From Candidatus Aenigmatarchaeota archaeon (GTDB lineage Archaea; Aenigmatarchaeota; Aenigmatarchaeia; CG10238-14; SCSR01), in assembly GCA_016181005.1 (NCBI GenBank), contig JACPAE010000001.1:179885-243884 (forward strand): a stretch of 64,000 nt of DNA, given 5' to 3'. The position numbers and the translations under genes were made by a program. Below, one piece after another: positions 11,694-57,096 of the stretch. The notes beneath the pieces were generated by a model that was given only the letters and a program-made list of their open reading frames with translations, was not told the DNA's origin and did no database searches. Position 1 is the stretch's first letter, and each line of letters opens with the position of its first letter.

Positions 11694-12158
11694 ATGAAAC
11701 GAATAAAGCTGGCTATATCCATTTTGATTCCGTTAGCTGTAGGTTTCCTGGGATCATTATTCACAACGCCTTCTATTGGAACATGGTACACAACTATAAA
11801 CAAACCGGCATTCAATCCACCGGACTGGATTTTCTTTCCTGTATGGACGACATTATTCATATTGATGGGGATATCACTCTACCTAGTCTGGGAAAACTCG
11901 ACAAAGAAAAGCGGTAAGAGGTCGTTCTACATATTTGGCATACAGCTAACACTGAATCTTCTATGGTCTATACTGTTCTTCGGCATGCACAAACCGTTGT
12001 ATGCATTAATCGATATAGCAGTTCTATGGGTAGCTATACTTCTAACACTGCTTGAGTTTCGCAAGTTTTCTAAAACAGCTTCACTGTTGCTTCTCCCTTA
12101 CTTGGCTTGGGTAACATTTGCTACAGTGCTAAACTTTTCAATAGTGTTGCTGAATTGA
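11694..12158 (+). CDS. tspO: TspO/MBR tryptophan-rich sensory protein
   Basis: 154 aa. WYTTINKPAFNPPDWIFFPVWTTLF is the classic TspO signature. Confidence 0.8.
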   Translation: MKRIKLAISILIPLAVGFLGSLFTTPSIGTWYTTINKPAFNPPDWIFFPVWTTLFILMGISLYLVWENSTKKSGKRSFYIFGIQLTLNLLWSILFFGMHKPLYALIDIAVLWVAILLTLLEFRKFSKTASLLLLPYLAWVTFATVLNFSIVLLN

Positions 12159-12159
12159 T

Positions 12160-12399
12160 ATGATAATTTCCGTTAAAACCATTCCAAACTCGAAAAGGAT
12201 TGAGGTAAAGAAATTAGGGGAGAATGCTTATTCTGTAAGGCTGGACAAACCTGCCGTAGACGGGAAGGCAAACTCCAGATTGATAGAAGTGCTCTCAGAT
12301 TATTTTAATGTTTCAAAGTCTTCGGTAAATATAGTTAAAGGATTCAGGAGCAGGGAAAAGATTGTAGATATTATTCAGGAGCATAGTTCTCCACGGTAA
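12160..12399 (+). CDS. DUF167/YggU family protein
   Basis: 79 aa. IISVKTIPNSKRIEV...YSVRLDKPAVDGKAN...L matches the DUF167 pattern. Confidence 0.55.
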   Translation: MIISVKTIPNSKRIEVKKLGENAYSVRLDKPAVDGKANSRLIEVLSDYFNVSKSSVNIVKGFRSREKIVDIIQEHSSPR

Positions 12400-12465
12400 T
12401 AGGTAGACCGGTCGATAAGACAGAAGCAATTACAATAGTTTTATTACCCAAAACAATATAGGTGT

Positions 12466-13020
12466 ATGCAAAGCTCTACAATCGAGCAGAAACTGGAGAG
12501 CATGCCGCCGAATTTTCTCGCTTCCTTAATTTGTGGCATAAACGACAAGCCCGAACTGTCCAGAAAACTCCTAAGTTATTTTATGAGGAAAAAAGGTAGC
12601 TCAGGCATTTACTTGACTCTGGACAAGCCTGGCATGACGATAAAAGAAGAGATGATAAGAAACAAAATACCAGTGGAAAACCTTTACTTTGTCGATCTCA
12701 TATCTGAGGCGTCAGGTGCAGGTATCCAGCGCGACAACATTCTTTTCTCCAACTCGCCTTCAAACCTCACTGAAATAAGCATTATAATAAGCGGTGCCAT
12801 TAAGAACATGAAAGCTGAGAACAAGTTTCTAATCTTCGATACGTTGTCCACGTTGTTCAGCTACAATCCGCAACCTTTGGCTTTAAAATTCACCCATTTT
12901 ATGTCGACAATGATAAAGAATCTCAATGTATCAGGCGTCTTTATCATAATAAGAAACCAATTGGATGAAAGAGCAGTGTCGTTTATTTCAGGATTTGTCG
13001 ACGAAACAATAGAGATATGA
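12466..13020 (+). CDS. Hypothetical; degenerate RecA/KaiC-like (DUF835-like) domain
   Basis: 184 aa. GSSGIYLTLDKPG resembles a P-loop region but lacks GKT. Confidence 0.3.
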   Translation: MQSSTIEQKLESMPPNFLASLICGINDKPELSRKLLSYFMRKKGSSGIYLTLDKPGMTIKEEMIRNKIPVENLYFVDLISEASGAGIQRDNILFSNSPSNLTEISIIISGAIKNMKAENKFLIFDTLSTLFSYNPQPLALKFTHFMSTMIKNLNVSGVFIIIRNQLDERAVSFISGFVDETIEI

Positions 13021-13024
13021 TGTT

Positions 13025-13330
13025 ATGGCACATTTGGGCTTTGAAATCGGCGAAGTTTTTTCTTTATTCATAATTTTAGTAGGCTATGTAATTATTATCA
13101 TAGAGTTTGTAAATCATAAAAACCTGTTGCATTTGTTTTTAGCATATACATTTCTTTTAGTTGGATCAATAGCAACAGTTGTAGAAAGTTTTTATCTCGC
13201 GGATATTATGAATCTAGTTGAGCATGTTATCGGAATGGCGGCAGCGGGTATCGCATTCGGCATCACATCGTTTTTAGCATATAGAAAAATAACTGCTCTT
13301 GACAGTGGGATAAAAAGAAAGTTGAGATGA
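13025..13330 (+). CDS. Small membrane protein
   Basis: 101 aa with three hydrophobic helices. Confidence 0.35.
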   Translation: MAHLGFEIGEVFSLFIILVGYVIIIIEFVNHKNLLHLFLAYTFLLVGSIATVVESFYLADIMNLVEHVIGMAAAGIAFGITSFLAYRKITALDSGIKRKLR

Positions 13331-13334
13331 GAAA

Positions 13335-13655
13335 ATGGCAAATACACTGATAGTGTTATTGGACTTCATAGGATTTTTAGGTTTTACTGTAGCTTTTGTA
13401 TATTCGCTTAAAAACTTCCAAAAGACAAGGCACATCTCAGTAACATGGCTGCCATTTACTTTAGGCATGGCGTTTTTGGCAGCATTTTTATTCTCTAACA
13501 TCTTAGAATGGTCAGATTTCCATTTAGAAGTTTTAGACATACATCCGCAAACTCTGGACGAGATAGAAAATTCAATTTTGGTTGCTGCAATAGTCAGCAT
13601 TTTCACCTCAGTTCTGGTAACCCGCGAAGAATTTCTTAAGCCAGTATCAAGGTGA
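13335..13655 (+). CDS. Small membrane protein
   Basis: 106 aa with three hydrophobic helices. Confidence 0.35.
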   Translation: MANTLIVLLDFIGFLGFTVAFVYSLKNFQKTRHISVTWLPFTLGMAFLAAFLFSNILEWSDFHLEVLDIHPQTLDEIENSILVAAIVSIFTSVLVTREEFLKPVSR

Positions 13656-13722
13656 AATACTGCATTTATTTCTTACGTTTTGAAATGTAATACTTAAATA
13701 TTAGTAATACTAAATAGTTTGT

Positions 13723-13980
13723 ATGAAGGTAGAGAGGATAGAGTACCTAACTAGAGTAGGGCCTAAAGGTCAAATGATGTTGAAAAAAAACGTAAGGGAG
13801 ACACTTCACATAAAGCCTGGTTCTTTGGTTAGAGTTCTCGCTACAAAAAGCGAAGGCAAATTTCAACCAGTAAGTAAAGAAGACATGATAGCAGAAGTTG
13901 AAAGAATAGCAAAACTAGCTGGAAAACATTGGCCTAAAGGCAAAACATCAGTTGATTTAGTTAGAGAAGAAAGGCGGTAA
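13723..13980 (+). CDS. vapB: AbrB/SpoVT-type antitoxin (VapB-like)
   Basis: 85 aa. Swapped-hairpin-like N-terminus. Sits 1 nt upstream of a PIN-domain gene. Confidence 0.7.
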   Translation: MKVERIEYLTRVGPKGQMMLKKNVRETLHIKPGSLVRVLATKSEGKFQPVSKEDMIAEVERIAKLAGKHWPKGKTSVDLVREERR

Positions 13981-13981
13981 A

Positions 13982-14395
13982 GTGAGAGTTGTAGTTGATA
14001 CTACTGTTTTGGTTAGTGTATTTTCGGACAAAGATAAATTCCATAAAGACGGAATCAGACTTTACTCGGATATTCTAGACAGGAAAATAGAACCTATTAT
14101 ACCAACTTTAGCTTTCCCAGAAACCTGTGGTGTTATTAGAAGAATATTAGGCGAACATATTGCAATTATGGTAGAAGACCAGTTGAATTTGCTTGTAGAT
14201 AATGAAGTGCTTAAAGCAGAAGAATTGACAATCAAAAGAATGAAAAGCTCGGTTGAAAGCGCCATAAGATATAGTGTTAGAGGCGGTGACGCAGTATTCA
14301 TTTCTTTAACAGAGGAATTTGATGCGAAACTTGCAACTTTCGATGAGGAATTAAAAAAGAAAATAAAGGGCAGAGTAAAGTTATTCAAAATATAA
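13982..14395 (+). CDS. vapC: PIN-domain toxin VapC
   Basis: 137 aa. N-terminal VVDTTVLV and conserved acidic residues of a PIN domain. Confidence 0.8.
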   Translation: MRVVVDTTVLVSVFSDKDKFHKDGIRLYSDILDRKIEPIIPTLAFPETCGVIRRILGEHIAIMVEDQLNLLVDNEVLKAEELTIKRMKSSVESAIRYSVRGGDAVFISLTEEFDAKLATFDEELKKKIKGRVKLFKI

Positions 14396-14498
14396 TAGCT
14401 GTGAAAAATAGGTGAGGAAAGAATATTTTTTGTTTCAATACAATTTTAGAAAGTGAGAGTTCGTGATGTGAAATACGGCGAAATCAAAATAAGACCAG

Positions 14499-14825
14499 TC
14501 ATTTAGTTAAGATTGCTTTTGGTTTTGCTATCCGCTCTGCGTATTCATTCGCTAGGGCAAGTTCCAAGTCTAGCAAACGTCTTACAAATGTATTCTCCTT
14601 GTCAATAGTATACAATTGCGTCTTTCCATATTTTCTAGTTGATTTAAGAATTCTGAACTTGACAAAGTCTTTCCATATATTGAAAAAAGTTGTCTTGGAT
14701 ATACCTGAACCCTCGATTATTTCCTTCTTGGAATAGTCAAATGGCATATTGTCTATCAGAAAATCTATTACTCTAAGCTTAGGAGTGTTGCCAACATATT
14801 GTATTAAAATCGACTCGTCTTTCAT
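14499..14825 (-). CDS. Winged-helix transcriptional regulator
   Basis: 108 aa. KKEIIEGSGISKTTFFNIWKDF looks like an HTH. Confidence 0.5.
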   Translation of the reverse strand: MKDESILIQYVGNTPKLRVIDFLIDNMPFDYSKKEIIEGSGISKTTFFNIWKDFVKFRILKSTRKYGKTQLYTIDKENTFVRRLLDLELALANEYAERIAKPKAILTK

Positions 14826-14895
14826 TTTGCATCATAGATACTATCTAGTATCAAGTATTTAAATATAGCCTTTCAAAGGTATTAAAAGTGAACTT

Positions 14896-15171
14896 ATGAG
14901 TTTCGATGAGGAAATACAAGCTGTTATTATCCACCAATTATTTAGAAAGCAAAAGTGGATGGCCAACCACATAGCATATGATAAAATTAAGAAATGGGTT
15001 GTGGCTGGTTTAAGAGGCAAGAACGGAAAAGAAACCGATCATGGCCTGAAGCAACTAATCAAAGAAAATCTAATTATACCCAAGCCTACAAATTATGGAC
15101 TGCAAATCAGTTTGAACATAGAATTTAAAGAGGAAATAGATAGGAGGATGAAGAAATTCTACGATGTTTAG
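14896..15171 (+). CDS. Hypothetical protein
   Basis: 91-aa ORF. AAAAGTGAAC motif lies 10 nt upstream. Confidence 0.35.
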   Translation: MSFDEEIQAVIIHQLFRKQKWMANHIAYDKIKKWVVAGLRGKNGKETDHGLKQLIKENLIIPKPTNYGLQISLNIEFKEEIDRRMKKFYDV

Positions 15172-15235
15172 AACTAACTCATGTTTCTTATAAAAAGTGA
15201 GAGTTGGAGAGATTTAAAGATTATTATTTATTTAA

Positions 15236-15793
15236 TTGTTTATGTCTACAAAGAGCGAACAACCATCTAAATTACTTGAACAAATGAAACAAGAATTGTA
15301 TAGAGTGATTGGCAACTACGCAGACAGATTAAATGTTAACAGGTTAAGGTCATATATAGATGCTTTTTCAATTCCCCAAACAACTTCATCCCAAATTTTA
15401 TTGTCAAAACTACAGGAACTAAAAAGAGGCCCTTATCTTACCCCAGAAGTTTTTAGACAATTTCGTCAAGAATTTCCGCCAGAAACGTCACCTGATTTTC
15501 ATGGGAGGTATGGAATTCTAACGTCTTTCGAGCATAGCATCGAAAGGTATGGTGAAGATGCATTAGCACATCTTATTTTATCATCACGGTCGTATCATGC
15601 TCTTTTGAGATCTGGGATTGAAACTATAAGTGAATTAAGAACATTTATTGAGACCCCACCACCTTACTACACCGAAGATTACAGAAAGGCAGGAATGCAT
15701 CCACTTAAGATTATACGTAACATAGGTGAAAAAGGAGCCTCCGAAATCCAAAGAGCATTAGAAGGATTTGATAATTTAAGAGCAAGGAAATGA
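15236..15793 (+). CDS. Hypothetical protein with C-terminal helix-hairpin-helix DNA-binding motif
   Basis: 185 aa. SYHALLRSGIETISEL...LKIIRNIGEKGASEIQRAL is HhH-like. AAAGTGAGAGTT lies 30 nt upstream. Confidence 0.4.
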   Translation: MFMSTKSEQPSKLLEQMKQELYRVIGNYADRLNVNRLRSYIDAFSIPQTTSSQILLSKLQELKRGPYLTPEVFRQFRQEFPPETSPDFHGRYGILTSFEHSIERYGEDALAHLILSSRSYHALLRSGIETISELRTFIETPPPYYTEDYRKAGMHPLKIIRNIGEKGASEIQRALEGFDNLRARK

Positions 15794-15896
15794 ACTCCCT
15801 CCGAAAGACAGGTATATCGGAGATTGTTTTCATGTTGTTACTCATATGTAGTGAGGAATAGAAAAGCTTAAATATAACTGAATACTCTATAAAGAT

Positions 15897-16184
15897 ATGC
15901 CTCAAGAAGTTAGAAGTGAATTGCAGTTACAACTGGAAAGTAGGGGTTACGAATTTTTAACTAATGTGAATCCTATGATTGAGACTGGAATACCACAAAG
16001 AGCCGACCCTAAAACAGGAATGCTATATTTTGATCGTGTATTGCGCATGTATCCAGCTACTGATACAGAAATAGCTAATAGATATTCTCATTTTGAAAAT
16101 ATTTTAGTTACAGACGCCTATGACATACACGGGAATCCTATTCCTGATTTCCGAGCTGTTTATGTAAGACGTCAACAAAAATAA
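15897..16184 (+). CDS. Hypothetical protein
   Basis: 95-aa ORF. Confidence 0.3.
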   Translation: MPQEVRSELQLQLESRGYEFLTNVNPMIETGIPQRADPKTGMLYFDRVLRMYPATDTEIANRYSHFENILVTDAYDIHGNPIPDFRAVYVRRQQK

Positions 16185-16469
16185 GTCCTAAACACGTTTA
16201 AAAACTGAGAAATAACTATTATTATCTACGATGTTGTGGTGCAGAATATATGTTGGTGTGAGTTATTCTAACGAGTAAGTGCATACACAACTGCACCGTA
16301 AATAGCTAAATGGTAAGAGACAAATCTAAGTGCTTTCAAGACTTCGTTAGTGGTCATTTCTTCCAAACTTTGTCTATAAGGTACATTTCTAGCATTATTT
16401 ATAAGCAGTCCAGCTAGAGGTATAAAATCCTGAATTTTGTAGTTTCTTCTTAAATCGTAGGACATATGA

Positions 16470-16945
16470 CATAATTCATCTATTAAATATTAAAGATTAG
16501 TATATCATATCCTTCATCACATATTTTCGTGAGTATAATAATTTGCAAATTTCTCATTATCTAGCAGATTCTAAATCGGTAAAATAAGCCGAAATGACGT
16601 AAAATCAGCCTTTTTTAACCTATTAAATACGATAATAAAACATATACTATATTATATATGAAAGAGTGACTAATAAATTTTGCCAAAAATGAGAGAAATC
16701 AAGTATATATTATAAAATATAATAGGGAAAATAGATATTGGTGAGACTTTATCGGTAAGTGAGGGTTAATATAATTAAGAATAAAACATATGTTGTAAAA
16801 TATAAATAGATAGAGATGGACTGTATTATATATTTAAGTGAGGATATGTTTTTGAAGGTAAAACTTTTATCTCTATAACGCCAAAGTGAGAGTTAACCGA
16901 AAAGTATAAAAGTGAGAAAAGCCATATAATAGTATAGAGTGAGAT
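16470..16945. promoter_or_regulatory. AT-rich non-coding region with at least 6 copies of an AAGTGAG(A/G) motif. Candidate promoter or origin-like region.
   Basis: GGTGAGACT at 16740; AAGTGAGGGTT at 16758; AAGTGAGGAT at 16836; AAAGTGAGAGTT at 16883-16894; AAAGTGAGAAAAG at 16908; AGAGTGAGATC at 16935. Confidence 0.5.
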
Positions 16946-16946
16946 C

Positions 16947-17576
16947 ATGTTTGGATGGGTAAAAAGGCTATTCAAGCGAAGCGAAGCGCTTCAAAGCGCT
17001 TCAAGCGATTTAACATCGCTTCAAAGCGATACTCAAGCGCTTGAAAATCAATCGCTTCAAAGCGCTTCAAATATTTCGGATATAGATCAAACGGAATCTA
17101 GACCTCTCGAAATTGAAAAAGGTTCCTTACATCTCGGTATTGCGGCTGGCTATACAGGCCGAGTTTTAAGGGATATTGAGGCTTCTTTACTTCGAATTGA
17201 AGCTCAAATGGTCACAAAAGACTGGATGACGCTTCAAGTAAAGGACGATATTGATAAACGTTTAGAAACAATCCAAGAGGCTTTGTACGGGATATCAGGA
17301 ATTGCTAAAACTCTACCTCCATCTGAACAAGCTAAAATAATGGATAAAATACAGTCAATCGAGTCTAATTTACCCCTAACACCACAGATGCAAAGGATAA
17401 TGGCTGTATTGGAATTAAATAAGGAAATCTCTTATGATGAGCTTGCTGCTAAATTAGGCATTCAAGTATCTGCTCTGAGGGGGTTACTCTCTCAAATGGC
17501 CAAAAGAACCCAAAGAATCGTTAGAACAGAAAAAGAAGGCAAAGGATGGGTTAAAATCAGTGAAACGACGCTTTAA
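16947..17576 (+). CDS. Repeat-containing protein with C-terminal winged-helix DNA-binding domain
   Basis: 209 aa. N-terminal LQSAS-type repeats, central coiled coil, C-terminal wHTH (LELNKEISYDELAAKLGIQVSALRGLLSQMAK). Confidence 0.5.
   Translation: MFGWVKRLFKRSEALQSASSDLTSLQSDTQALENQSLQSASNISDIDQTESRPLEIEKGSLHLGIAAGYTGRVLRDIEASLLRIEAQMVTKDWMTLQVKDDIDKRLETIQEALYGISGIAKTLPPSEQAKIMDKIQSIESNLPLTPQMQRIMAVLELNKEISYDELAAKLGIQVSALRGLLSQMAKRTQRIVRTEKEGKGWVKISETTL
16975..17075. repeat. Iteron-like direct repeats of CGCTTCAA(A)GCG, about 8 copies, including the perfect palindrome TCAAGCGCTTGA
   Basis: Region reads ttcaagcgaagcgaagcgcttcaaagcgcttcaagcgatttaacatcgcttcaaagcgatactcaagcgcttgaaaatcaatcgcttcaaagcgcttcaaat. 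A related CGCTTTAAAT x2 lies just after the stop at 17572-17595. Confidence 0.6.
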
Positions 17577-17647
17577 ATCGCTTTAAATCGAGCGATGTGG
17601 AAATGTACTCCTTCGAAAGCTAGATATTCTTAAATAAATGAATTTCA

Positions 17648-18232
17648 GTGGTATTTATGTCAGAAGGTGAAATGGTAGAAATAGTGAAGGAATTAGCTAA
17701 ATTTGATGATTTCAAGATGCTTAAGGAGCCATTAGTGCTTTCTCCCGATATGGTTATAGAATGGGATGGAAAGAGAATAGGGATGGAATTCAAACAAGGT
17801 TTATACTCTTCTGATATAGCTGCTGGTATAGGCCAATTGTTGTTGGGTAAGGTGGTTTTTGCTCTACATGAAATGTGGTTAGTCTTTCCGAAGGCTCAAG
17901 TTCCTAAAAGATTATCCCTAAGTTGGTATGAGACAATGACAACTGTCGGAATAAAACCTTATTGGCTGGATGTCACAGGATTTACCAGAATTGATTATAA
18001 GGATTGTGCAAAATTAACTAAGATGGATGATATAAGATATCAGTGGCCAATGAGATACATTAATATACCTTCTTACCAGAAAGAAAAGGCAAAAGAAGCG
18101 GAACTAGTTAGTGCTCCACTTCAATCTGCAATGAGGACATACCTCGATTTTATCGAAAACACCAGCTCTAACGAAAGTATGGCATTTCCTGCAAGGTACG
18201 TTGACCTTACCAATGAATGGACTAAACTTTGA
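17648..18232 (+). CDS. Hypothetical protein
   Basis: 194-aa ORF. Confidence 0.35.
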   Translation: MVFMSEGEMVEIVKELAKFDDFKMLKEPLVLSPDMVIEWDGKRIGMEFKQGLYSSDIAAGIGQLLLGKVVFALHEMWLVFPKAQVPKRLSLSWYETMTTVGIKPYWLDVTGFTRIDYKDCAKLTKMDDIRYQWPMRYINIPSYQKEKAKEAELVSAPLQSAMRTYLDFIENTSSNESMAFPARYVDLTNEWTKL

Positions 18233-32761: not shown

Positions 32762-33880
32762 TTACTCTTCGCTTCTCACTATAAGGTCAAACATTCCAGT
32801 TCCTGCCGGCACAATCTGCCCCACCATGACATTCTCAAAGATTCCCTGCAAGTTGTCAATCTCGTTCCTTATCGAAGCCTTGACAAGATGCTTTATCGTC
32901 TCCTCGAAGGCAGCCCGAGCAAGAATAGAAGTCTTCGCTCCTGCAACACCATAGCGCCCTATAGAATCAACAGCGCCGCTAAATGTCATAATGTCGGCAA
33001 CAAGAGTAACATACCTGACATCCACGTCAAGCGCCTGCTCCTGCATTGTCTTCAAAGCCTCCCTTATTATGACGCTCCTTGCGGCTTCTATGCCTAGCAC
33101 AGATTCTATCTCATAAATGTCATTTGTGAACGTTTTCTTCTCATCGACTTCCTTTATTTTCAGCACATCGCTCAAATTAGTTCCTATAGTGTTTATTATC
33201 CAGTCATCCTCCTCTTTTCTAACAAGAGCGTTTTTAATCCCTTTAACTCCCGTAACAGACAGCATCAGAATCTTTTCTTTCAGCTTCTGCAGCTCCTTAA
33301 CGTCATCAGTCTTCGCTATAACTGAAATCTTATCCTCCCTAGACCTGACATTCACGTTCTTCACAGACTCTTTGATAATCCTTTGCATCACATCAACCCT
33401 TCTCTTGTCGGAGACTTCAATTTCTATCGCGTTCTCGTTCAAGTTCAGCGAGATCCGATTAATGAGATTCATAACCTTCTTTTCTATAACAAATTCCGCA
33501 AGTTTAGCGGCCTCGGTCGCATTGTTGCTTTCTCTCTTCAAATATATGGTCATCATGGGAGTCTCGGGCGTCTTTTTGGCATCGAAAATTTCTATTAGCC
33601 TAGGCAGGCCATAAGTAACTCTTATCCCGGCTGTTCCTGCAAAGTGATAAGTACGCATCGTCATCTGTGTAGCTGGTTCAGAAATGCTTTGGGCAGCAAT
33701 TATTCCTATTCCCTCGGCCGGTTCAAATCTGCCTTGAAGATAAACTTTCTTGACTTCTTCAAGCAGCTTCTGCTTCTTCTCCGCATTCAGTCTCATTTCC
33801 TTCCCGACATTCTCCACTTCTTCCAGCAATTTACTAGGCAAGTTGTCTTCATGCGAATTTGTCTGCGATTTCTCTGACAT
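32762..33880 (-). CDS. rpoA2: RNA polymerase subunit A''
   Basis: 372 aa. GIGIIAAQSISEPATQMTMRTYHFAG. Overlaps the upstream gene by 32 nt. Confidence 0.9.
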   Translation of the reverse strand: MSEKSQTNSHEDNLPSKLLEEVENVGKEMRLNAEKKQKLLEEVKKVYLQGRFEPAEGIGIIAAQSISEPATQMTMRTYHFAGTAGIRVTYGLPRLIEIFDAKKTPETPMMTIYLKRESNNATEAAKLAEFVIEKKVMNLINRISLNLNENAIEIEVSDKRRVDVMQRIIKESVKNVNVRSREDKISVIAKTDDVKELQKLKEKILMLSVTGVKGIKNALVRKEEDDWIINTIGTNLSDVLKIKEVDEKKTFTNDIYEIESVLGIEAARSVIIREALKTMQEQALDVDVRYVTLVADIMTFSGAVDSIGRYGVAGAKTSILARAAFEETIKHLVKASIRNEIDNLQGIFENVMVGQIVPAGTGMFDLIVRSEE

Positions 33881-36800
33881 TTATTCCTCCACTTTCTATT
33901 TTTGACGGATCCAAACCATCCTCGCCCGGCACAAACTGCACTATCCTGTTGGCGCTGTCCCTTACAGTACCGTCGTATTCGACTTTCAAATCCTGCAGCG
34001 CACCGACCAGCCTTCTTTCCATATAACCGCTGTGCCTTGTCTTCAGCGACTTGTCCATAAGCGACTCCCTGCTGTTGATAGCATCGAAGAAGAATTCAAA
34101 CGGCGTAACACCGTCCTTGAACCCTCTACTGACGAATCCTGTCGCCTCCAAGCTCAACGTTCCTGGCTTGAAATGCGGAAATGTCCGCTGATAATAACCC
34201 TTCTCTATCCTCTCACCCATAACCATCTCCTGCCCGACCATCGCAGCAGTTTGCACAATGTTCACAACCGATCCCCTGGCACCGCTCCTCACCATTGCAA
34301 GTGTAAAGTTGTCCTTCAAATACTTCTCAAGAACTTTTTGCACATCATTCAACCCGTTCCTCAGGATTGTTTTGACAATGTGGTCAAGGCTCTCCTTCGG
34401 CGACCTGCCGACAAGAAGCTTCAACTCGCCCCTCTCATATTTCTTGTTTGTGTCGTCAACATCTTTCCTCAGGGTTTCTATAATCTCCTTTATGTCCTTC
34501 TTCGCATTCTCCGGCAGGTCCTGGTCAGACAAGCTGATGGAAAATCCAATAAGCATAAGATAGTTTATCGCCAGCCTTGTAACATTGTAGATGAACTTTT
34601 TAGTAGCCTCGCCGCCGTACACCTTTTCCATCTTGTCTATTATTTTTCCGGCCTCGGCTCCGATGGCAACTTTGTCTATAGCCCCCTTTAAAAGCCTGCC
34701 ATTCTCTATCACGACACTTTCCCCTGTGTTCGATTTGAATTCGAGCGAGAATCCTTTCGGCAGGAACGTGCTGAACACTTCTTTTCCTGTAAGATGCTCC
34801 TTGTCCGGCAACTCTATGCTCTGGTCGACAGCCCTTACAAGCTGCGTGAACTCTTTTCTTGAAAGTTTGACATTGTCCTGTGTCAGAAGATACGATCCGG
34901 TTATGTGGTCACGTATGGCTCCTATGACAGGCCCCGAGAATCTCGGGCTTCGTATGTGCTTCGGCACCATCATCAAATTCTCCACCTCAACCTTTGCCTC
35001 TTCTGTCTGTGGCACATGAAGGTTCATCTCATCCCCGTCAAAATCGGCATTGTAAGGAGTGGTCGCGCTGAGATTCATTCTGAAAGTTTTGAAGGGCATG
35101 ACCTTGACTTTATGCCCCATCAAGCTCATCCTGTGAAGGCTGGGTTGCCTATTGAAAATAACAATGTCGCCGTTCTGCAAATGCCTCTCCACAATGTAGC
35201 CAGGGGCAATCTCGGTTGCTATCTCGCTCTTGTTCAAATCGGTTATCTTCTTTCTCCTTCCGTCGGGCCTGATTACGTAATTTGCTCCCGGCCAAATCTC
35301 TGAACCGTTCAGGACGAGCTTTTTGAGCTCTTCCAAGTCGCTTTCGTTAACTTTGACAGGCATTGTCAATTCTTTCGCGATGACTTCAGGAACTCCAACC
35401 TCGTCAATATCGATCATTGGATCTGGTGAGATGACAGTTCTCGCAGAAAAGTTAACCCTCTTGCCGGCAAGGTTTCCTCTGAATCTCCCTTCCTTGGTCT
35501 TCAACCTCTGCGACAGTGTCTTAAGCACCCTTCCCGATCTGTGCCTTGCAGGCGGGACTCCAGACAGCTCATTGTCGAAATAAGTTGATATATGGTACTG
35601 CAAAAGTTCCCACAAGTCTTCAAGTATAAAGTCTGGCGCACCCAAGTCGATGTTCTCCTTTAACCTGTCATTAATCCTTACTATGTCAACAAGTTTGTGC
35701 GTGAGGTCGTCCTCGCTCCTCTCCCCTGTCTCGAGTGTGATAGACGGTCTTACGGTAACAGGCGGTATAGGCATCAGCGTCAGCACAAGCCACTCCGGCC
35801 TCACCTTCAAGCCGATCACGTCAAGGTCCTCCTGTGAAATCTTCTCCAACATTTCCCTCACCTCGCCAAAATTCAGCGTCCTTGCTCCTTCGACAAACGT
35901 GTAAGGCTTGATGAACTTGAACTTCTTCTGCTCAGTATTGCAGTGCGGACACTTTTTTCTGGACATTGTCACAAGCTCTTTAAAGTTCATTTTCTTCCCC
36001 CTGGCCTTTTCAATGTCCTTGGGATCAACGAGCATCTTGACGCACTTGTGGCAAAACATTTTCAAAAGCGCAAAAACAATTTTCGAATAGTGTACATGTA
36101 TGATGGGTTTTGTCAGTTCCAAGTAGCCGAAATGCCCGTGGCAGTCTCCCACATTTCCCCCGCAAGTCCTGCATCTCACACCAGGATCTATAACCCCAAG
36201 CCTCGGGTCCATCAAGCCACCTTCAATCGGATAGCCTTCTTGGTCGTAAAGCTCTGTCTTGGTCAGCTTGGCCGCGGCAATGCTCTTCACCATCTCAGGC
36301 GAGACGATTCCAAATTCCAGCTTGCTCACCTTCATCAGGTTCTCGTCGACAACAATCTTCGGATAAATAAGCATGCTCTTGAGCTCGTCCAGCATAAGCT
36401 TGAACGCGTAGCTCATCTCCACATCAACTATCTTTGACTCTCCATGTATCGGGCAAATTTTTTTGTTCTTTACGCGGTCCTGAATGGAAACCAAGCCGCA
36501 GAGGGTGCAGATACATACAGTCGTCTTGTCAGAGTCGAACCTTTCTTTCAGCACAAGCGACGCACCATGAGCTATGAGGCAGTCCTTCTCCATCTCACCA
36601 AGCCTCAGACCGCCTTCCTTGCTTCTTCCTTCAGTCGGTTGCTTTGTCAGCAGCGTCACAGGTCCCCTCGATCTCGCATGTATTTTGTTTGAAACAAGAT
36701 GATCCAGCTTCTGGTAAAACGTGCTTCCGATAAATATCTGAGAGTCGAATCTCTTTCCTGTCCTGCCATCGTACATTATTTCCTTCCCGTCGTTTCTAAA

Positions 36801-38132
36801 TCCATGAGCCACCAAAGTGTTTCTAAGTTCATTCTCCGGCGTCGGGCTGAACGCAGACGCATTCACGTACTTGCCAGTAAGCGCAGCCACCTTGCCTGCG
36901 ATAATCTCCAGCAACTGCCCCATAGTCATTCTTGACGGAATGCCGTGGGGATTGAAAATTATGTCCGGCACAATACCGCTTTCTGTGAACGGCATGTCTT
37001 CAGACGGAACAACAAGGGCGATTACACCTTTCTGGCCGTGCCTTGACGCAAGCTTGTCGCCGATTTCAGGAACCTTCATGTCCCTAACAGCAACTTTAAT
37101 CAGCTTTGTGCCGTCAGTAGTGTCGGTTATGAAAACCCTGTCAACAACTCCATGGTCGCCATGCCTAAGCCTTAAAGAAGTTTCGCGTATGTTCTCCAGG
37201 CCTGTGACAAACTTGTCCATGGTACCCAAGAACCTAAGCGGCGACACCCTCCCGATTATCACCTGATCCGATTCCAAAATTGTTTCCGGATTCGATATCC
37301 CGTCTTCCGGCAGATGCTTGTATGAGTCCTCGCCAGCATAACCTCTGACGCCGGCCTCAGGTATCGCTATTATGTCCTCCTGGCCTCCAAGATACCTTTT
37401 TTGCTCCGCTTCATAAGACCTGTACATGTAGGACCACAGAACACCTTTCTGCAAAGAGCCTGCATTTATGACTATGCTGTCTTCCATGTTGTACCCATCA
37501 AAGGACGCCACTGCAATTATCAGATTGTTTCCGTTCGGATGGGTATTGTAAGGGATGACATCGTATGCATGGGTCTGCACCAAGGGCCTTTGAGGGTAAA
37601 TCATCACGTTCGACTTGGTGTCGACTCTGGAAAGGAAATTCGTGGCAAAAATTCCAATGGACTGCCCGACCATTTTAGCCCCGTAGTTGACCCTGTCCCC
37701 CCTGTTGAATTCTGGGAACGGAATGAAAGATGCAGAGAAACCCAAAATTACTGCTGGATCCATTTCAATATGAGTGTGGTCCGGCGTAAGCTCGTTCTCA
37801 TCAAGTGCAATCAAAGAGTTTTCCTCCTCCTCGCTGTCAAGATACTCAACAACGCCGGTCTTCACCAATTCACTCCAGTTAATCTCACCTTTCTTCAATT
37901 TCTCCACTAGCTCTTTCGTCAATTTCGGGACTCCCCTCTCGACAACAATCAACGGCCTTCTCACTCTTCCGGATTCCGACAGAATTCTGACTTCGTCCAA
38001 ATTCCGGTGGTAAACTACATTTACTTCATAGGGTATAACCCCGGCCCTTCTCTTTTCCCTGATATCTCTAACAAGCTTTTCCGGATCTGCCGTGTCGCCA
38101 ACAAACTTGCCGTCAAAAAATATCGTGCTCAT
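33849..38132 (-). CDS. rpoB1-rpoA1: RNA polymerase subunit B' (C-terminal half of RpoB, residues 1-599) fused in frame to subunit A' (residues 600-1427)
   Basis: The B' part has GRHGQKGV, FDGYNMEDS, GEMEKDCLIAHGA and a C-terminal zinc ribbon. The A' part has MKVSKLEFGIVSPE, zinc ribbons and NADFDGDEMN. I read the junction DNA as ...gac gag aac ctg atg aag gtg agc..., with no stop. Confidence 0.85.
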   Translation of the reverse strand: MSTIFFDGKFVGDTADPEKLVRDIREKRRAGVIPYEVNVVYHRNLDEVRILSESGRVRRPLIVVERGVPKLTKELVEKLKKGEINWSELVKTGVVEYLDSEEEENSLIALDENELTPDHTHIEMDPAVILGFSASFIPFPEFNRGDRVNYGAKMVGQSIGIFATNFLSRVDTKSNVMIYPQRPLVQTHAYDVIPYNTHPNGNNLIIAVASFDGYNMEDSIVINAGSLQKGVLWSYMYRSYEAEQKRYLGGQEDIIAIPEAGVRGYAGEDSYKHLPEDGISNPETILESDQVIIGRVSPLRFLGTMDKFVTGLENIRETSLRLRHGDHGVVDRVFITDTTDGTKLIKVAVRDMKVPEIGDKLASRHGQKGVIALVVPSEDMPFTESGIVPDIIFNPHGIPSRMTMGQLLEIIAGKVAALTGKYVNASAFSPTPENELRNTLVAHGFRNDGKEIMYDGRTGKRFDSQIFIGSTFYQKLDHLVSNKIHARSRGPVTLLTKQPTEGRSKEGGLRLGEMEKDCLIAHGASLVLKERFDSDKTTVCICTLCGLVSIQDRVKNKKICPIHGESKIVDVEMSYAFKLMLDELKSMLIYPKIVVDENLMKVSKLEFGIVSPEMVKSIAAAKLTKTELYDQEGYPIEGGLMDPRLGVIDPGVRCRTCGGNVGDCHGHFGYLELTKPIIHVHYSKIVFALLKMFCHKCVKMLVDPKDIEKARGKKMNFKELVTMSRKKCPHCNTEQKKFKFIKPYTFVEGARTLNFGEVREMLEKISQEDLDVIGLKVRPEWLVLTLMPIPPVTVRPSITLETGERSEDDLTHKLVDIVRINDRLKENIDLGAPDFILEDLWELLQYHISTYFDNELSGVPPARHRSGRVLKTLSQRLKTKEGRFRGNLAGKRVNFSARTVISPDPMIDIDEVGVPEVIAKELTMPVKVNESDLEELKKLVLNGSEIWPGANYVIRPDGRRKKITDLNKSEIATEIAPGYIVERHLQNGDIVIFNRQPSLHRMSLMGHKVKVMPFKTFRMNLSATTPYNADFDGDEMNLHVPQTEEAKVEVENLMMVPKHIRSPRFSGPVIGAIRDHITGSYLLTQDNVKLSRKEFTQLVRAVDQSIELPDKEHLTGKEVFSTFLPKGFSLEFKSNTGESVVIENGRLLKGAIDKVAIGAEAGKIIDKMEKVYGGEATKKFIYNVTRLAINYLMLIGFSISLSDQDLPENAKKDIKEIIETLRKDVDDTNKKYERGELKLLVGRSPKESLDHIVKTILRNGLNDVQKVLEKYLKDNFTLAMVRSGARGSVVNIVQTAAMVGQEMVMGERIEKGYYQRTFPHFKPGTLSLEATGFVSRGFKDGVTPFEFFFDAINSRESLMDKSLKTRHSGYMERRLVGALQDLKVEYDGTVRDSANRIVQFVPGEDGLDPSKIESGGINVREIADKFA

Positions 38133-38136
38133 ATCA

Positions 38137-39612
38137 TCACTTCTTCAGCATGTCAAAGACAGGCTTTAATTCCTTCTCCTGCAGTCCTCTTGACACTTCC
38201 GCCATCGACGCCAAATATTTTCTCAAGCCAATCGTCGCGCCTTCCGGCGTTTCCGAGGTGCACAATTTTCCAAAATGTGTGGGATGCAGTTCCCTGGCCT
38301 CAAAGTGTTCCTGGGTTGATGTAAGCGGGGATAGTACGTTCCTCATATGAGAGATGGTTTTAATGTAGCTGCCTCTCTCAAGCCTCTGGCTGACTCCGGT
38401 CCTTCCACCTACCCACGAGCCAATGGCAAGTGCCGACACCAGCTGGTTGCTGAGGACGTTGGATTCTATAATCGACTGCAACGGAGGCAGCCTCCCCCTC
38501 TTTGTCAGCTTTTGGTAGTTGTACGTCACCCTTGTTATCAATCCCCACTTGCCCAAAAGAATCGATCTTAGAAGTATCTCAAGCAAATCCCCGGATTGCC
38601 TGAGCCTCTTGTTCGAATAATGATCCAAGTCGTCCTCGTCGATCTTGTTCAAATGCAGCTTTATGATCTTCTCAATCGCCTTTGCAAGGAACAGTGCCTT
38701 GGCCATTCTGTCAGGCGGCTCCTGTCCAAGATGCGGAAGCAAGTAGCGGTCGATTATCTTCACGGCACGCTGTATTCTGTACTCCAACTGCGGTATTTTC
38801 AAGTGCTTCCCGATTTCGTCCATGGCATCGTCCTTGTTGACTGCCTGGTTCTCGTAAAGATTGATGTAGAATTCCTCCTGCACATCCTCGTCTGACGACA
38901 CAGCATTCACAATATTCCTGTCATTATCCAAGCCCAACGCCTTTATCAAGATGCCTAAAGGAAGTTTTGTAACATTCGCGAAACTTATTGTCAGCAGCCC
39001 GTCAACCCTCCTTTCAATCAGGTGCCTCTGCACGTAACCGTCCTTTTCGGAATGGATCCTTGCTATTTCTGCAATGTTGGTTGAGCCTAGTTTGGATACT
39101 ATTATCCTGTTCGATGCGATCTCCTCTACAAGAACAAGAATTCTTTCGGTCCCGTTTACGATGAAATACCCGCCGGGATCATCCGGATCTTCGCCAGCTT
39201 CAATCAACCCCTCACGCGGCATTTGCGACAATGGACATATCTTCGACTTGAGCATCACAGGCATGTCTCCGAAGTTGACAATCACAGGCTCACCCTCCTG
39301 CTTGTTTATCACAGGCGTTATCTCGACATACATCGGTGCGGCATAAGTGAGATTTCTGGTCCTCGCCTCTGACGGCATGATTGCTCTGACGCTGCCGTCC
39401 GCCTCCTTGACAGTCGGCTCTCCTATCTTGAAATCGCCCAGCTTCAGCTTTATGTCTCCAACGTCCGGGACATCTGGCTTGATAACGCCGATCTCACTCA
39501 GGACTTTTCCTATCCTTCTCATGATGAAATCGTTGTAGGACTCGATCTGGAATTTCGAAAATCCCCTTTCACGTATTTGGCTTTTTAACAGCGGGACGAA
39601 GAAATCTTTCAT
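38137..39612 (-). CDS. rpoB2: RNA polymerase subunit B'' (N-terminal half of RpoB)
   Basis: 491 aa, N-terminal RpoB domains. Lies 4 nt upstream of the B'/A' ORF in a different frame. Confidence 0.9.
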   Translation of the reverse strand: MKDFFVPLLKSQIRERGFSKFQIESYNDFIMRRIGKVLSEIGVIKPDVPDVGDIKLKLGDFKIGEPTVKEADGSVRAIMPSEARTRNLTYAAPMYVEITPVINKQEGEPVIVNFGDMPVMLKSKICPLSQMPREGLIEAGEDPDDPGGYFIVNGTERILVLVEEIASNRIIVSKLGSTNIAEIARIHSEKDGYVQRHLIERRVDGLLTISFANVTKLPLGILIKALGLDNDRNIVNAVSSDEDVQEEFYINLYENQAVNKDDAMDEIGKHLKIPQLEYRIQRAVKIIDRYLLPHLGQEPPDRMAKALFLAKAIEKIIKLHLNKIDEDDLDHYSNKRLRQSGDLLEILLRSILLGKWGLITRVTYNYQKLTKRGRLPPLQSIIESNVLSNQLVSALAIGSWVGGRTGVSQRLERGSYIKTISHMRNVLSPLTSTQEHFEARELHPTHFGKLCTSETPEGATIGLRKYLASMAEVSRGLQEKELKPVFDMLKK

Positions 39613-40140: not shown

Positions 40141-40188
40141 TTGTTGAATAATAGAATGTGGTTGTTTATAAATTTGAGATAAGAGGTA

Positions 40189-40320
40189 GAAGGACGCAGT
40201 GCAGTTCCCGTGGTCAAGCCACAGTACAAAGCACCACGCTGGAGAGTTTAACTTCCGTGTTCGGATTTCCCTACTTTTAGAGTATATGGGAACGGGTGGA
40301 ACCTCTCCGCTCTGGTCCTT
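40189..40320 (-). rRNA. rrf: 5S rRNA, standalone, with an approximately 21-nt insertion after the CCCAT segment
   Basis: Minus strand reads GGACCAGAGCGGAGAGGTTCCACCCGTTCCCAT[ATACTCTAAAAGTAGGGAAAT]CCGAACACGGAAGTTAAAC...GTACTG...GGGAACTGC...GCGTCCTTC. Universal CCGAACACGGAAGTTAA motif present, and helix I closes via GAAGGAC/GTCCTTC. Confidence 0.8.
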
Positions 40321-40390
40321 CAATAACTTTATGAGGTATTCAATGTTTTTAAACATGTAGTATAACGAATAAATGTTTTGTCATATTTCA

Positions 40391-41013: not shown

Positions 41014-41124
41014 TCCCGAAGGAGAGATTTGAACTCTCAACCTCACCGTATCCGGTAGAGTGCTGATCACTAGCACAATAGTACTAGGCTACAGCGGCGC
41101 GCTCCACCATTGAGCTACTTCGGG
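41014..41124 (-). tRNA. tRNA-Tyr (GTA) with 39-nt intron at canonical 37/38 position
   Basis: CCCGAAG-TA-GCTC-AATGGTG-GAGC-G-CGCCG-CTGTAG[39 nt]A-CGGTG-AGGTT-GAGAG-TTCAAAT-CTCTC-CTTCGGG-A. C1:G72 and A73 are archaeal Tyr identity elements. Intron CTAC pairs with GTAG, consistent with a BHB. Confidence 0.8.
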
Positions 41125-49178: not shown

Positions 49179-50522
49179 CTAATAGACTTTTCTTATCTCG
49201 TCTTGAACCTGCTTTACAAAATCTCCCAACCTAACGCCTTGCTTTTCCCCACCATCGTAATTTGACCTGACGGAAATTGTTTTACTCTCTTCCTCTTTCT
49301 TGCCTATAACGAGAGAGTACGGAATCTTTTGCAATTGTACATTTCTTATCTTGTATCCGATTGTGTTAGATTCATAATCACCGACAACTCTTATACCACT
49401 TTCCAAAAGTTCTTTCTCGACCGAGCGCGCATAATTTTCATTCTGCTCGGACAGCGACAAGACTGCAACTTGCACTGGCGCGAGCCAGACAGGGAACTTG
49501 CCTTGATAGTGCTCAATCAAAATTCCGATGAACCTCTCAAGTGAGCCGTATATGACACGATGGATTACAATCGGAGTGTGCTCTTTGCCATCCTCGCCCG
49601 TGTAAGTTAATTGGAATCTACCCGGCATCTGGAAGTCCAGCTGTATGGTTGCGCACTGCCATTCCCTTCCCATCGAGTCCTTTATGTCCACATCAATCTT
49701 CGGTCCGTAGAATGCACCCTCCTTTTCCTTTATCTCAGCCTTTATGCCGTTCTTTTTCGCAACCTTGACAAGAATGTCAACAGCTTTATCCCACTGCTCC
49801 TTCGTTCCCATATGCTCCTCTGGCATCGTTGAAATCTTTACGGTATACTTCAGATCGAAAATGCCATAGAACTTTTTCATCAATTCTATCTGTTCGTGCA
49901 TTTCACCTTCTATCTGGTCTTCCGTGACAAAAATATGTGCGTCATCTTGCGTTAATGATTTAACCCTGAACAAACCGCTTGCGACGCCGCTCAGCTCGTT
50001 CCTGTACAAGACATCAAAATCGGATATCCTTAATGGAAAGTCTTTATAGCTCCATTTCTTGGATTTGTAGAAAAGGAAAGTGGACGGACAATTCATGGGC
50101 TTCAAGCCAAACTCTTCATTTCCAAGCTTGGTGATGAACATATTGTCCTTGTAGTGGTCCCAGTGGCCGCTTACCCGCCACAATACAGTATTTGCAAGCG
50201 CAGGAGCAGATATTTCTATGTAATTCCTTTTGGACAGCTCATTTCGTATAAAGTCAATCAGGATGTTCCTTAGTTTCAGCCCCTTGTCGTGCCAGTACAC
50301 CATCCCGGGCGACGGCTCTTGGAAGCTGAACAGGTCGAGTTTTTCACCGATGATTCTGTGGTCTGTTTCCGGCAGGCCCGCAAAGTCACTTCTCTTTATC
50401 CTCGCCATCATTGCGTGTTCGCTCAAGTTCTCCTCGTGCTTAACCTTCCCAAATTTCTCCTCTTTCTTCGAATAAATTTTTGCTGTCTCTGCCAGAGGAT
50501 GTCCCTTGACTTTGATGTGCAA
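49179..50522 (-). CDS. thrS: Threonyl-tRNA synthetase catalytic core plus anticodon-binding domain. TTG start, or joined to the upstream editing-domain ORF by frameshift.
   Basis: 447 aa. Begins (L/M)HIKVKGHPLAE, matching the conserved CKGHPLSE linker of archaeal ThrRS. Class II motifs present. Confidence 0.85.
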   Translation of the reverse strand: MHIKVKGHPLAETAKIYSKKEEKFGKVKHEENLSEHAMMARIKRSDFAGLPETDHRIIGEKLDLFSFQEPSPGMVYWHDKGLKLRNILIDFIRNELSKRNYIEISAPALANTVLWRVSGHWDHYKDNMFITKLGNEEFGLKPMNCPSTFLFYKSKKWSYKDFPLRISDFDVLYRNELSGVASGLFRVKSLTQDDAHIFVTEDQIEGEMHEQIELMKKFYGIFDLKYTVKISTMPEEHMGTKEQWDKAVDILVKVAKKNGIKAEIKEKEGAFYGPKIDVDIKDSMGREWQCATIQLDFQMPGRFQLTYTGEDGKEHTPIVIHRVIYGSLERFIGILIEHYQGKFPVWLAPVQVAVLSLSEQNENYARSVEKELLESGIRVVGDYESNTIGYKIRNVQLQKIPYSLVIGKKEEESKTISVRSNYDGGEKQGVRLGDFVKQVQDEIRKVY

Positions 50523-50787
50523 CTTGATTCGGATTTGCCAAATCCCTGCTCAAATGCGCGAAAGGATATATCAAAATCTTCTTGCACTTCACCTTGCCGA
50601 GAAAATTCTTCACATCATCTATAGCCTTCTTCCCGACAGATTCGTCGTCACTGTCCTCAACTGAAACAAAGAGCACAACAACGTCTTTGAGCCTGTATTT
50701 TTTTTTGGTTACTTCCTCAGCCTGCTTTATCTCCCTTTTAGTCGGCTCGTATTCGATAAAGTCAGCATGAGACTGCAAAATACGCAT
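50440..50787 (-). CDS. thrS-ed: Archaeal ThrRS N-terminal editing domain (D-aminoacyl-tRNA-deacylase-like), in a different frame from the catalytic ORF
   Basis: 115 aa. ...KKILIYPFAHLSRDLANPNQVA matches the archaeal editing-domain VYPYAHLSSDL region. The last 20 or so aa are out-of-frame read-through of the catalytic ORF. Confidence 0.7.
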   Translation of the reverse strand: MRILQSHADFIEYEPTKREIKQAEEVTKKKYRLKDVVVLFVSVEDSDDESVGKKAIDDVKNFLGKVKCKKILIYPFAHLSRDLANPNQVAHQSQGTSSGRDSKNLFEERGEIWEG

Positions 50788-50839
50788 AAAGCATCAAAAG
50801 TAATTAGTTTTTATAAGTTTATGAAATATTAGCAATTAA

Positions 50840-50912
50840 AGCCCCGTCGTCTAGTGGTCAAGGATACGAGACTCTGGATCTCGGGACATCGGTTCGAATC
50901 CGATCGGGGCTA
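50840..50912 (+). tRNA. tRNA-Gln (CTG)
   Basis: AGCCCCG-TC-GTCT-AGTGGTCAA-GGAT-A-CGAGA-CTCTGGA-TCTCG-GGAC-ATCGG-TTCGAAT-CCGAT-CGGGGCT-A. A1:U72 is typical of archaeal tRNA-Gln. Confidence 0.85.
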
Positions 50913-50947
50913 CTTAGTTATTAAAACAATGATTAGAATGTAACTAA

Positions 50948-56996: not shown

Positions 56997-57096
56997 TGGA
57001 CCGGGAGAGATTTGAACTCTCGTCCCCCTGCTTTCTTAGATATACGGAGCAAAGTCGTATAAGACAGGTGCTCCAACCAGACTAAGCTACCGGTCC
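56997..57096 (-). tRNA. tRNA-Ile (TAT) with 25-nt intron at canonical position
   Basis: GGACCGG-TA-GCTT-AGTCTGGTTG-GAGC-A-CCTGT-CTTATA[25 nt]A-GCAGG-GGGAC-GAGAG-TTCAAAT-CTCTC-CCGGTCC-A. TATACG of exon/intron pairs with intron CGTATA. Confidence 0.7.

Follow-up and report, generated by a model that had tools for sequence, protein, structure and literature searches.

The gene for threonyl-tRNA synthetase (ThrRS), thrS, lies on the minus strand of the window (the whole 64-kb stretch of DNA that was analyzed), where it occupies two overlapping open reading frames. The first of them, ORF-ed, is the 5' fragment of the gene (50787..50440, 115 aa), which starts with ATG and ends at a TAA stop at 50442-50440. 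The second, ORF-cat, is the 3' part of the gene (50522..49179, 447 aa) and opens with TTG at 50522-50520. The two frames share the 83 nt from 50440 to 50522, and relative to ORF-ed, ORF-cat is read in frame +1. A TATA-box-like element (TTATAAAA, 50809..50816, minus strand), read from the sequence, precedes the ATG at 50787 by approximately 25 nt. Taken with the usual geometry of archaeal promoters, its position suggests that the thrS transcript is leaderless or has a short leader. A divergent gene for tRNA-Gln(CTG) (50840-50913, plus strand) is found 52 nt upstream of thrS.

The ORF coordinates and the Pfam matches agree with the original prediction, which placed the editing domain and the catalytic core of ThrRS in two overlapping frames. 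ORF-ed covers positions 1-92 of the 137 positions of the archaeal editing-domain model PF08915 (E=6e-27), and its codons 1-88 (MRILQ...ANPNQ) are genuine editing-domain sequence. The last 27 residues, VAHQSQGTSSGRDSKNLFEERGEIWEG, are an out-of-frame read-through tail and, as had been stated, show no homology to ThrRS. ORF-cat contains the editing domain's last strand (HIKVKGHPLAE), followed by the linker, the class II catalytic core (PF00587, tRNA-synt_2b, E=7e-37), and the anticodon-binding domain (PF03129, HGTP, E=1e-21), and it scores 494.6 bits on the NCBIfam equivalog model for thrS, TIGR00418 (cut-off 383.65). In the NCBI records, ORF-ed is a "hypothetical protein" (MBI2084271.1, HYT70_01495), and ORF-cat is a threonine--tRNA ligase (MBI2084270.1) with the TTG codon of Leu118 annotated as its start. 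The latter (P0001 in our protein set) is titled 'MAG: threonine--tRNA ligase [Candidatus Aenigmarchaeota archaeon]' and is encoded on a 246-kb contig.

The 90%-identity cluster of this 447-aa protein contains a second member of 564 aa (P0121), which is encoded on five Logan contigs. The longer protein consists of residues 1-88 of ORF-ed, 29 residues that are lost in the window (AFDILKGMESYAKKLKIVASRAPFGWTKA, residues 89-117), and the whole of ORF-cat, which is identical to residues 118-564 except that Leu replaces the TTG-encoded start. Approximately 30 residues had been noted as missing between the editing ORF and KGHPL, and the comparison with the intact allele sets the number at 29. The junction-spanning Logan contigs examined, L006 (SRR12113424, 9,949 nt), L007 (SRR12113430), and L008 (SRR12113385), match the window with 100.000% identity on either side of 50523/50522, the sole difference being 86 extra nucleotides. 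As a control of contig quality, Logan contigs were taken for two further genes of the window as well. The Logan contigs come from six runs of one accession series. Over the 31,584 nt of the window that they cover, identity is 100.000%, and not one mismatch or gap was seen besides the deletion in thrS. This indicates that the assemblies represent the same clonal population and that the deletion is the lone discrepancy between them. L007 and L008 stop exactly at the 3' end of the tRNA-Gln gene (window 50912), which is expected where organisms share k-mers.

On the minus strand, the deletion junction reads CAAG/TTGCAC and falls at window 50523/50522, where 86 nt are absent compared with L006, L007, and L008. 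The deleted allele reads ...CCGAATCAAG/TTGCACATC..., and the two breakpoints of the intact allele read ...AATCAAG/CATTTGAC... and ...AAAAGCG/TTGCAC.... The absent stretch is (G)CATTTGACATATTGAAAGGAATGGAGTCTTATGCCAAGAAGCTCAAGATAGTTGCTAGTCGCGCCCCATTTGGTTGGACAAAAGC(G), and the microhomology at the junction amounts to one base (G). Alignment of the DNA with that of relatives (L001 and L002) gives a clean 86-nt gap in the window, within the editing domain. As a result, 29 codons are gone and the frame is shifted. An indel was one of the options considered in the original prediction, and it is the only one of them to survive, but as an 86-nt deletion and not as a homopolymer slip at the AAA run, which lies 8 nt downstream of the actual junction. 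Nor does a single-nucleotide correction yield the continuous ORF of about 600 aa with a full linker that had been envisaged. Removing one base at the junction, or adding two, produces a single ORF of only 535-536 aa, in which the editing site is still missing. The arrangement therefore cannot be explained by a single-base error or by a ribosomal frameshift.

No direct repeat of at least 7 nt bridging the breakpoints was found, and neither was a stable hairpin linking them; folded as single-stranded DNA, the intact region is no more stable than shuffled sequences (z = +1.49). An imperfect AAGC(A/G)TT(T)G element that flanks both sides was considered as the cause of the deletion and rejected, given that it predicts an in-frame loss of 84 nt and 86 nt were observed. 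The converse possibility, that the 86 nt are an intron or a mobile insert of the intact allele, was also discarded, because they encode conserved editing-site sequence that aligns to solved structures.

The consequences of the deletion were assessed by comparison with the ThrRS of Pyrococcus abyssi, to whose N-terminal editing domain (residues 1-135) the intact protein aligns with E=1.4e-27. The deletion takes out 29 residues whose counterparts in the P. abyssi alignment are residues 94-122, and with them the active-site strand of the domain. The lost segment also spans the equivalents of residues 117-120, which form the RNA-protein interface. In P. abyssi, Phe117 stacks on A76 of the tRNA (PMC3845328), and the main-chain nitrogen of Lys121 fixes the β-hydroxyl of serine; mutation of Lys121 abolishes editing (PMC4491819). 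The KGHPLAE motif aligns to residues 128-134 and forms the last strand of the editing domain, with the equivalent of Glu134. By this alignment, KGHPL is the editing domain's own last strand, and not the linker motif for which it had been taken. The missing residues, likewise attributed to the linker, lie inside the editing domain. A complete PF08915 domain in frame with the catalytic core is present in the intact allele and not in the window copy, where the domain is short of about 29 residues and its last strand sits in the +1 frame.

Homologues were searched for with a composite of both frames as the query. Each of the 119 other homologues listed is encoded by one ORF of 524-610 aa and contains PF08915, PF00587, and PF03129, and the closest among them are 565-566 aa long and 73-76% identical. 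The alignment to related ThrRS proposed earlier thus confirms that the relatives have one ORF, but what separates the window from them is an 86-nt gap and not a single base. The gene order near thrS is conserved in the relatives, with the genes for the CCA-adding enzyme, DNA ligase, and TrmB nearby. The motif [AS]PFGW.K was found in each of the 120 intact sequences checked (the 119 homologues and the 564-aa protein), and its spacing from [FY]AHLS is 34 residues in all 89 sequences that contain both exact patterns. This conservation of the motif, together with the fixed spacing, indicates that the missing segment is core sequence of the domain, invariant in length, and is no linker.

The catalytic part of this ThrRS departs from the archaeal type. 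On the archaeal equivalog model NF003068, ORF-cat reaches 200 bits (cut-off 484), far below its score on the general model TIGR00418. Among species-representative genomes, the best match of the intact protein is 65% identical, and after three archaeal MAGs the matches (loci L012-L088) are mostly ThrRS of Clostridia and other bacteria, at 45-53% identity over residues 171-560. Judged by the scores on the two models and by the bacterial best matches, this ThrRS family is an archaeal editing domain joined to a bacterial-like core.

Elsewhere in the window, an ORF of 1427 aa (33849-38132, minus strand) joins RNA polymerase subunit B' (Rpb2 domains 4-7, residues 4-594) directly to A' (Rpb1 domains 1-5, with the N-terminal part of domain 5, residues 601-1406; Pfam). 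B'' (Rpb2 domains 1-3) is encoded upstream (38137-39612, minus strand), and A'' (the remainder of Rpb1 domain 5) is encoded downstream (32762-33880, minus strand). The fusion is reminiscent of bacterial rpoB-rpoC fusions. An identical ORF is present on an independent Logan contig (L089, 100% identity over 8,726 nt), which shows that the B'-A' fusion is no artefact of the MAG alone. Two tRNA genes on the minus strand, of 100 nt (56997-57096) and 111 nt (41014-41124), were detected by Rfam and not by ARAGORN, and presumably contain introns. The match to 5S rRNA (40186-40323, minus strand), which adjoins one of these long tRNA genes, extends over 138 nt on a model of 120 positions, and the 5S rRNA probably carries an insertion. 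The region from 12000 to 18000 has a G+C content of 0.34-0.37, versus 0.40-0.48 elsewhere. Its GC skew is positive and most of its ORFs are short, and it may be of foreign or mobile origin.

Two of the explanations first offered for the overlapping frames would make them functional. According to one, the gene has evolved into a free-standing ThrRS-ed and a separate ThrRS-cat that act in trans, as they do in Crenarchaeota, except that the two genes would here be neighbors that overlap. The editing-domain homology does lie on one ORF and the catalytic core on the other, and ORF-ed weakly matches the model of the Ser-tRNA(Thr) hydrolase (NF011500). This match, however, is limited to positions 1-88 of 387 and to 68.4 bits, against a cut-off of 362. 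Moreover, ORF-ed has neither an anticodon-binding domain nor the substrate-holding segment that corresponds to P. abyssi residues 117-121. The break falls inside a domain, leaving the last strand with the Glu134 equivalent on the other ORF, and none of the 119 relatives has a split gene, while the otherwise identical contigs carry it fused. An evolved split is for these reasons very improbable. According to the other explanation, the ribosome undergoes a programmed +1 frameshift within 50440-50522 and so reads the frames as one ThrRS, as the 83-nt overlap in +1 relation would permit. The product of any such shift, however, would be defective, with approximately 535-560 aa and without the 29 conserved active-site residues, which include [AS]PFGW.K. 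The two-frame layout occurs in 0 of the 119 relatives and is absent from the identical population, and the out-of-frame tail has no ThrRS homology. We give programmed frameshifting practically no credence. Indeed, an intact gene for the 564-aa protein is present on contigs with 100% identity to the rest of the aligned window sequence, and this removes both readings more decisively than the single-nucleotide test envisaged earlier could have done. The two-frame arrangement is not a biological design, and the deletion is private to this contig.

The contig most likely misrepresents the consensus of the population. We consider it rather probable that the deletion is a local error of assembly or curation, or at most a minority allele caught by the assembler, and that the gene architecture of the organism is unaffected. 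The organism would then possess an ordinary one-piece thrS of archaeal type, encoding 564 aa when intact, in which a D-aminoacyl-tRNA-deacylase-like (DTD-like) editing domain at the N-terminus is followed by a linker, the class II core, and the anticodon-binding domain. In the deposited contig, 86 nt would have been lost inside the editing domain, taking away 29 codons and shifting the frame. ORF finders would consequently report a 115-aa stump and a 447-aa ORF beginning at the first start-type codon past the junction, the TTG of Leu118.

Several observations favor an error or a minority allele. Neither the stump nor the 3' part has decayed any further, both being identical in sequence to the intact allele. 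Local assembly errors are known to corrupt protein-coding genes in short-read MAGs, with 13 of them in a genome of 1.13 Mb, or about 1 per 90 kb, in one curated case (PMC7111523). The mark of such errors is a consensus that no read supports perfectly (Chen et al. 2020, PMC7111523). When set against independent assemblies of the same population, the discrepancy in thrS is an isolated one, as an assembly error would be. The 115-aa product forms a singleton cluster among approximately 15 billion proteins, its sole member being the NCBI MAG protein MBI2084271.1. None of the products of the broken allele (447 aa from the TTG, 410 aa from the ATG at 50411, and the 115-aa stump) was found on the indexed contigs, which is weak evidence, as these were incomplete look-ups of exact proteins. 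A 32-nt flank common to both alleles gave 0 matches in a scan of metagenome contigs. What counts against an artefact is the nature of the breakpoints, since without a repeat of at least 7 nt or a stable hairpin nothing obvious would make a de Bruijn graph skip 86 nt. This leaves room for reads that genuinely carry the junction.

The deletion may instead be real, very recent, and dominant in the sample from which the MAG was obtained. The editing domain would in that case be destroyed, and the cell would depend either on the 3' ORF as the source of a ThrRS without editing or on another copy of thrS elsewhere. We consider this possible but less probable. With 1 nt of microhomology and no repeat of k-mer length, the assembler should have needed supporting reads. 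The 3' ORF retains the full catalytic core and the anticodon-binding domain, and ThrRS without editing occurs naturally elsewhere, the yeast mitochondrial enzyme being an example (PMC4267643). On the other hand, the gene is intact on all five contigs, which are independent per-run assemblies of the same clone, and the deletion is on none of them. The absence of SNPs over 31.6 kb across six runs implies that a deleterious allele would have to have swept one sample only. Neither a second thrS nor a free-standing editing domain is present within the 64-kb window.

Were the deletion real, translation of the 3' ORF could start internally at the TTG at 50522 or, by reinitiation, at the ATG at 50411, 29 nt past the TAA of the stump. 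No Shine-Dalgarno-like motif, and no TATA-like box at promoter distance, precedes either codon. In the absence of a recognizable ribosome-binding or promoter signal, expression of the 3' ORF would have to rely on inefficient internal initiation or reinitiation. Shine-Dalgarno-like motifs precede only 10 of the 43 long ORFs of the window, so that their absence neither supports nor excludes internal initiation. The more specific proposal, that the 86-nt deletion is a real allele dominant in one groundwater sample and that this Aenigmarchaeote lives with an editing-less ThrRS made from the ATG at 50411 or the TTG at 50522, appears improbable. Were it true, it would show, as a modest example, that a DPANN archaeon with a reduced genome has naturally and very recently lost the ability to proofread Ser-tRNA(Thr).

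With an error or a minority allele as the favored reading, MBI2084270.1 and MBI2084271.1 are to be regarded as one broken thrS in one MAG contig, and they offer no evidence for a split or editing-less ThrRS in Aenigmarchaeota. The main value of the result concerns data quality, as a warning on two misleading entries whose intact 564-aa protein can be obtained from independent assemblies. In this respect thrS resembles the local assembly errors described for short-read MAGs (PMC7111523), where a lone discrepancy in an otherwise perfect contig corrupts a gene that enters public databases. Those errors are defined by a lack of perfect read support, whereas the present case was judged by comparison of assemblies.

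The intact protein has the same order of elements as the canonical archaeal ThrRS of P. abyssi (PF08915; PDB 1Y2Q and 2HL1), namely YPFAHLS, APFGW.K, KGHPLAE, the class II core, and the anticodon-binding domain. The window copy differs from it in lacking the equivalents of residues 94-122 and in being frameshifted. With the split ThrRS-cat and ThrRS-ed of Crenarchaeota (Aeropyrum pernix 'Probable threonine--tRNA ligase 2', PDB 4RR6; NF011500), the window shares the distribution of editing and catalytic sequences over different ORFs. The crenarchaeal ThrRS-ed, however, has a complete editing domain and an anticodon-binding domain, and the separate genes are conserved across the lineage. In contrast, the editing ORF of the window is an 88-residue stump with a nonsense tail, divided within a domain and known from a single contig. 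Finally, the product of the deletion, if expressed, would resemble the yeast mitochondrial ThrRS (PMC4267643), with a core and an anticodon-binding domain and without editing. Those natural editing-less enzymes are fixed, conserved forms with proper starts, whereas expression and fixation of the allele of the window are hypothetical.
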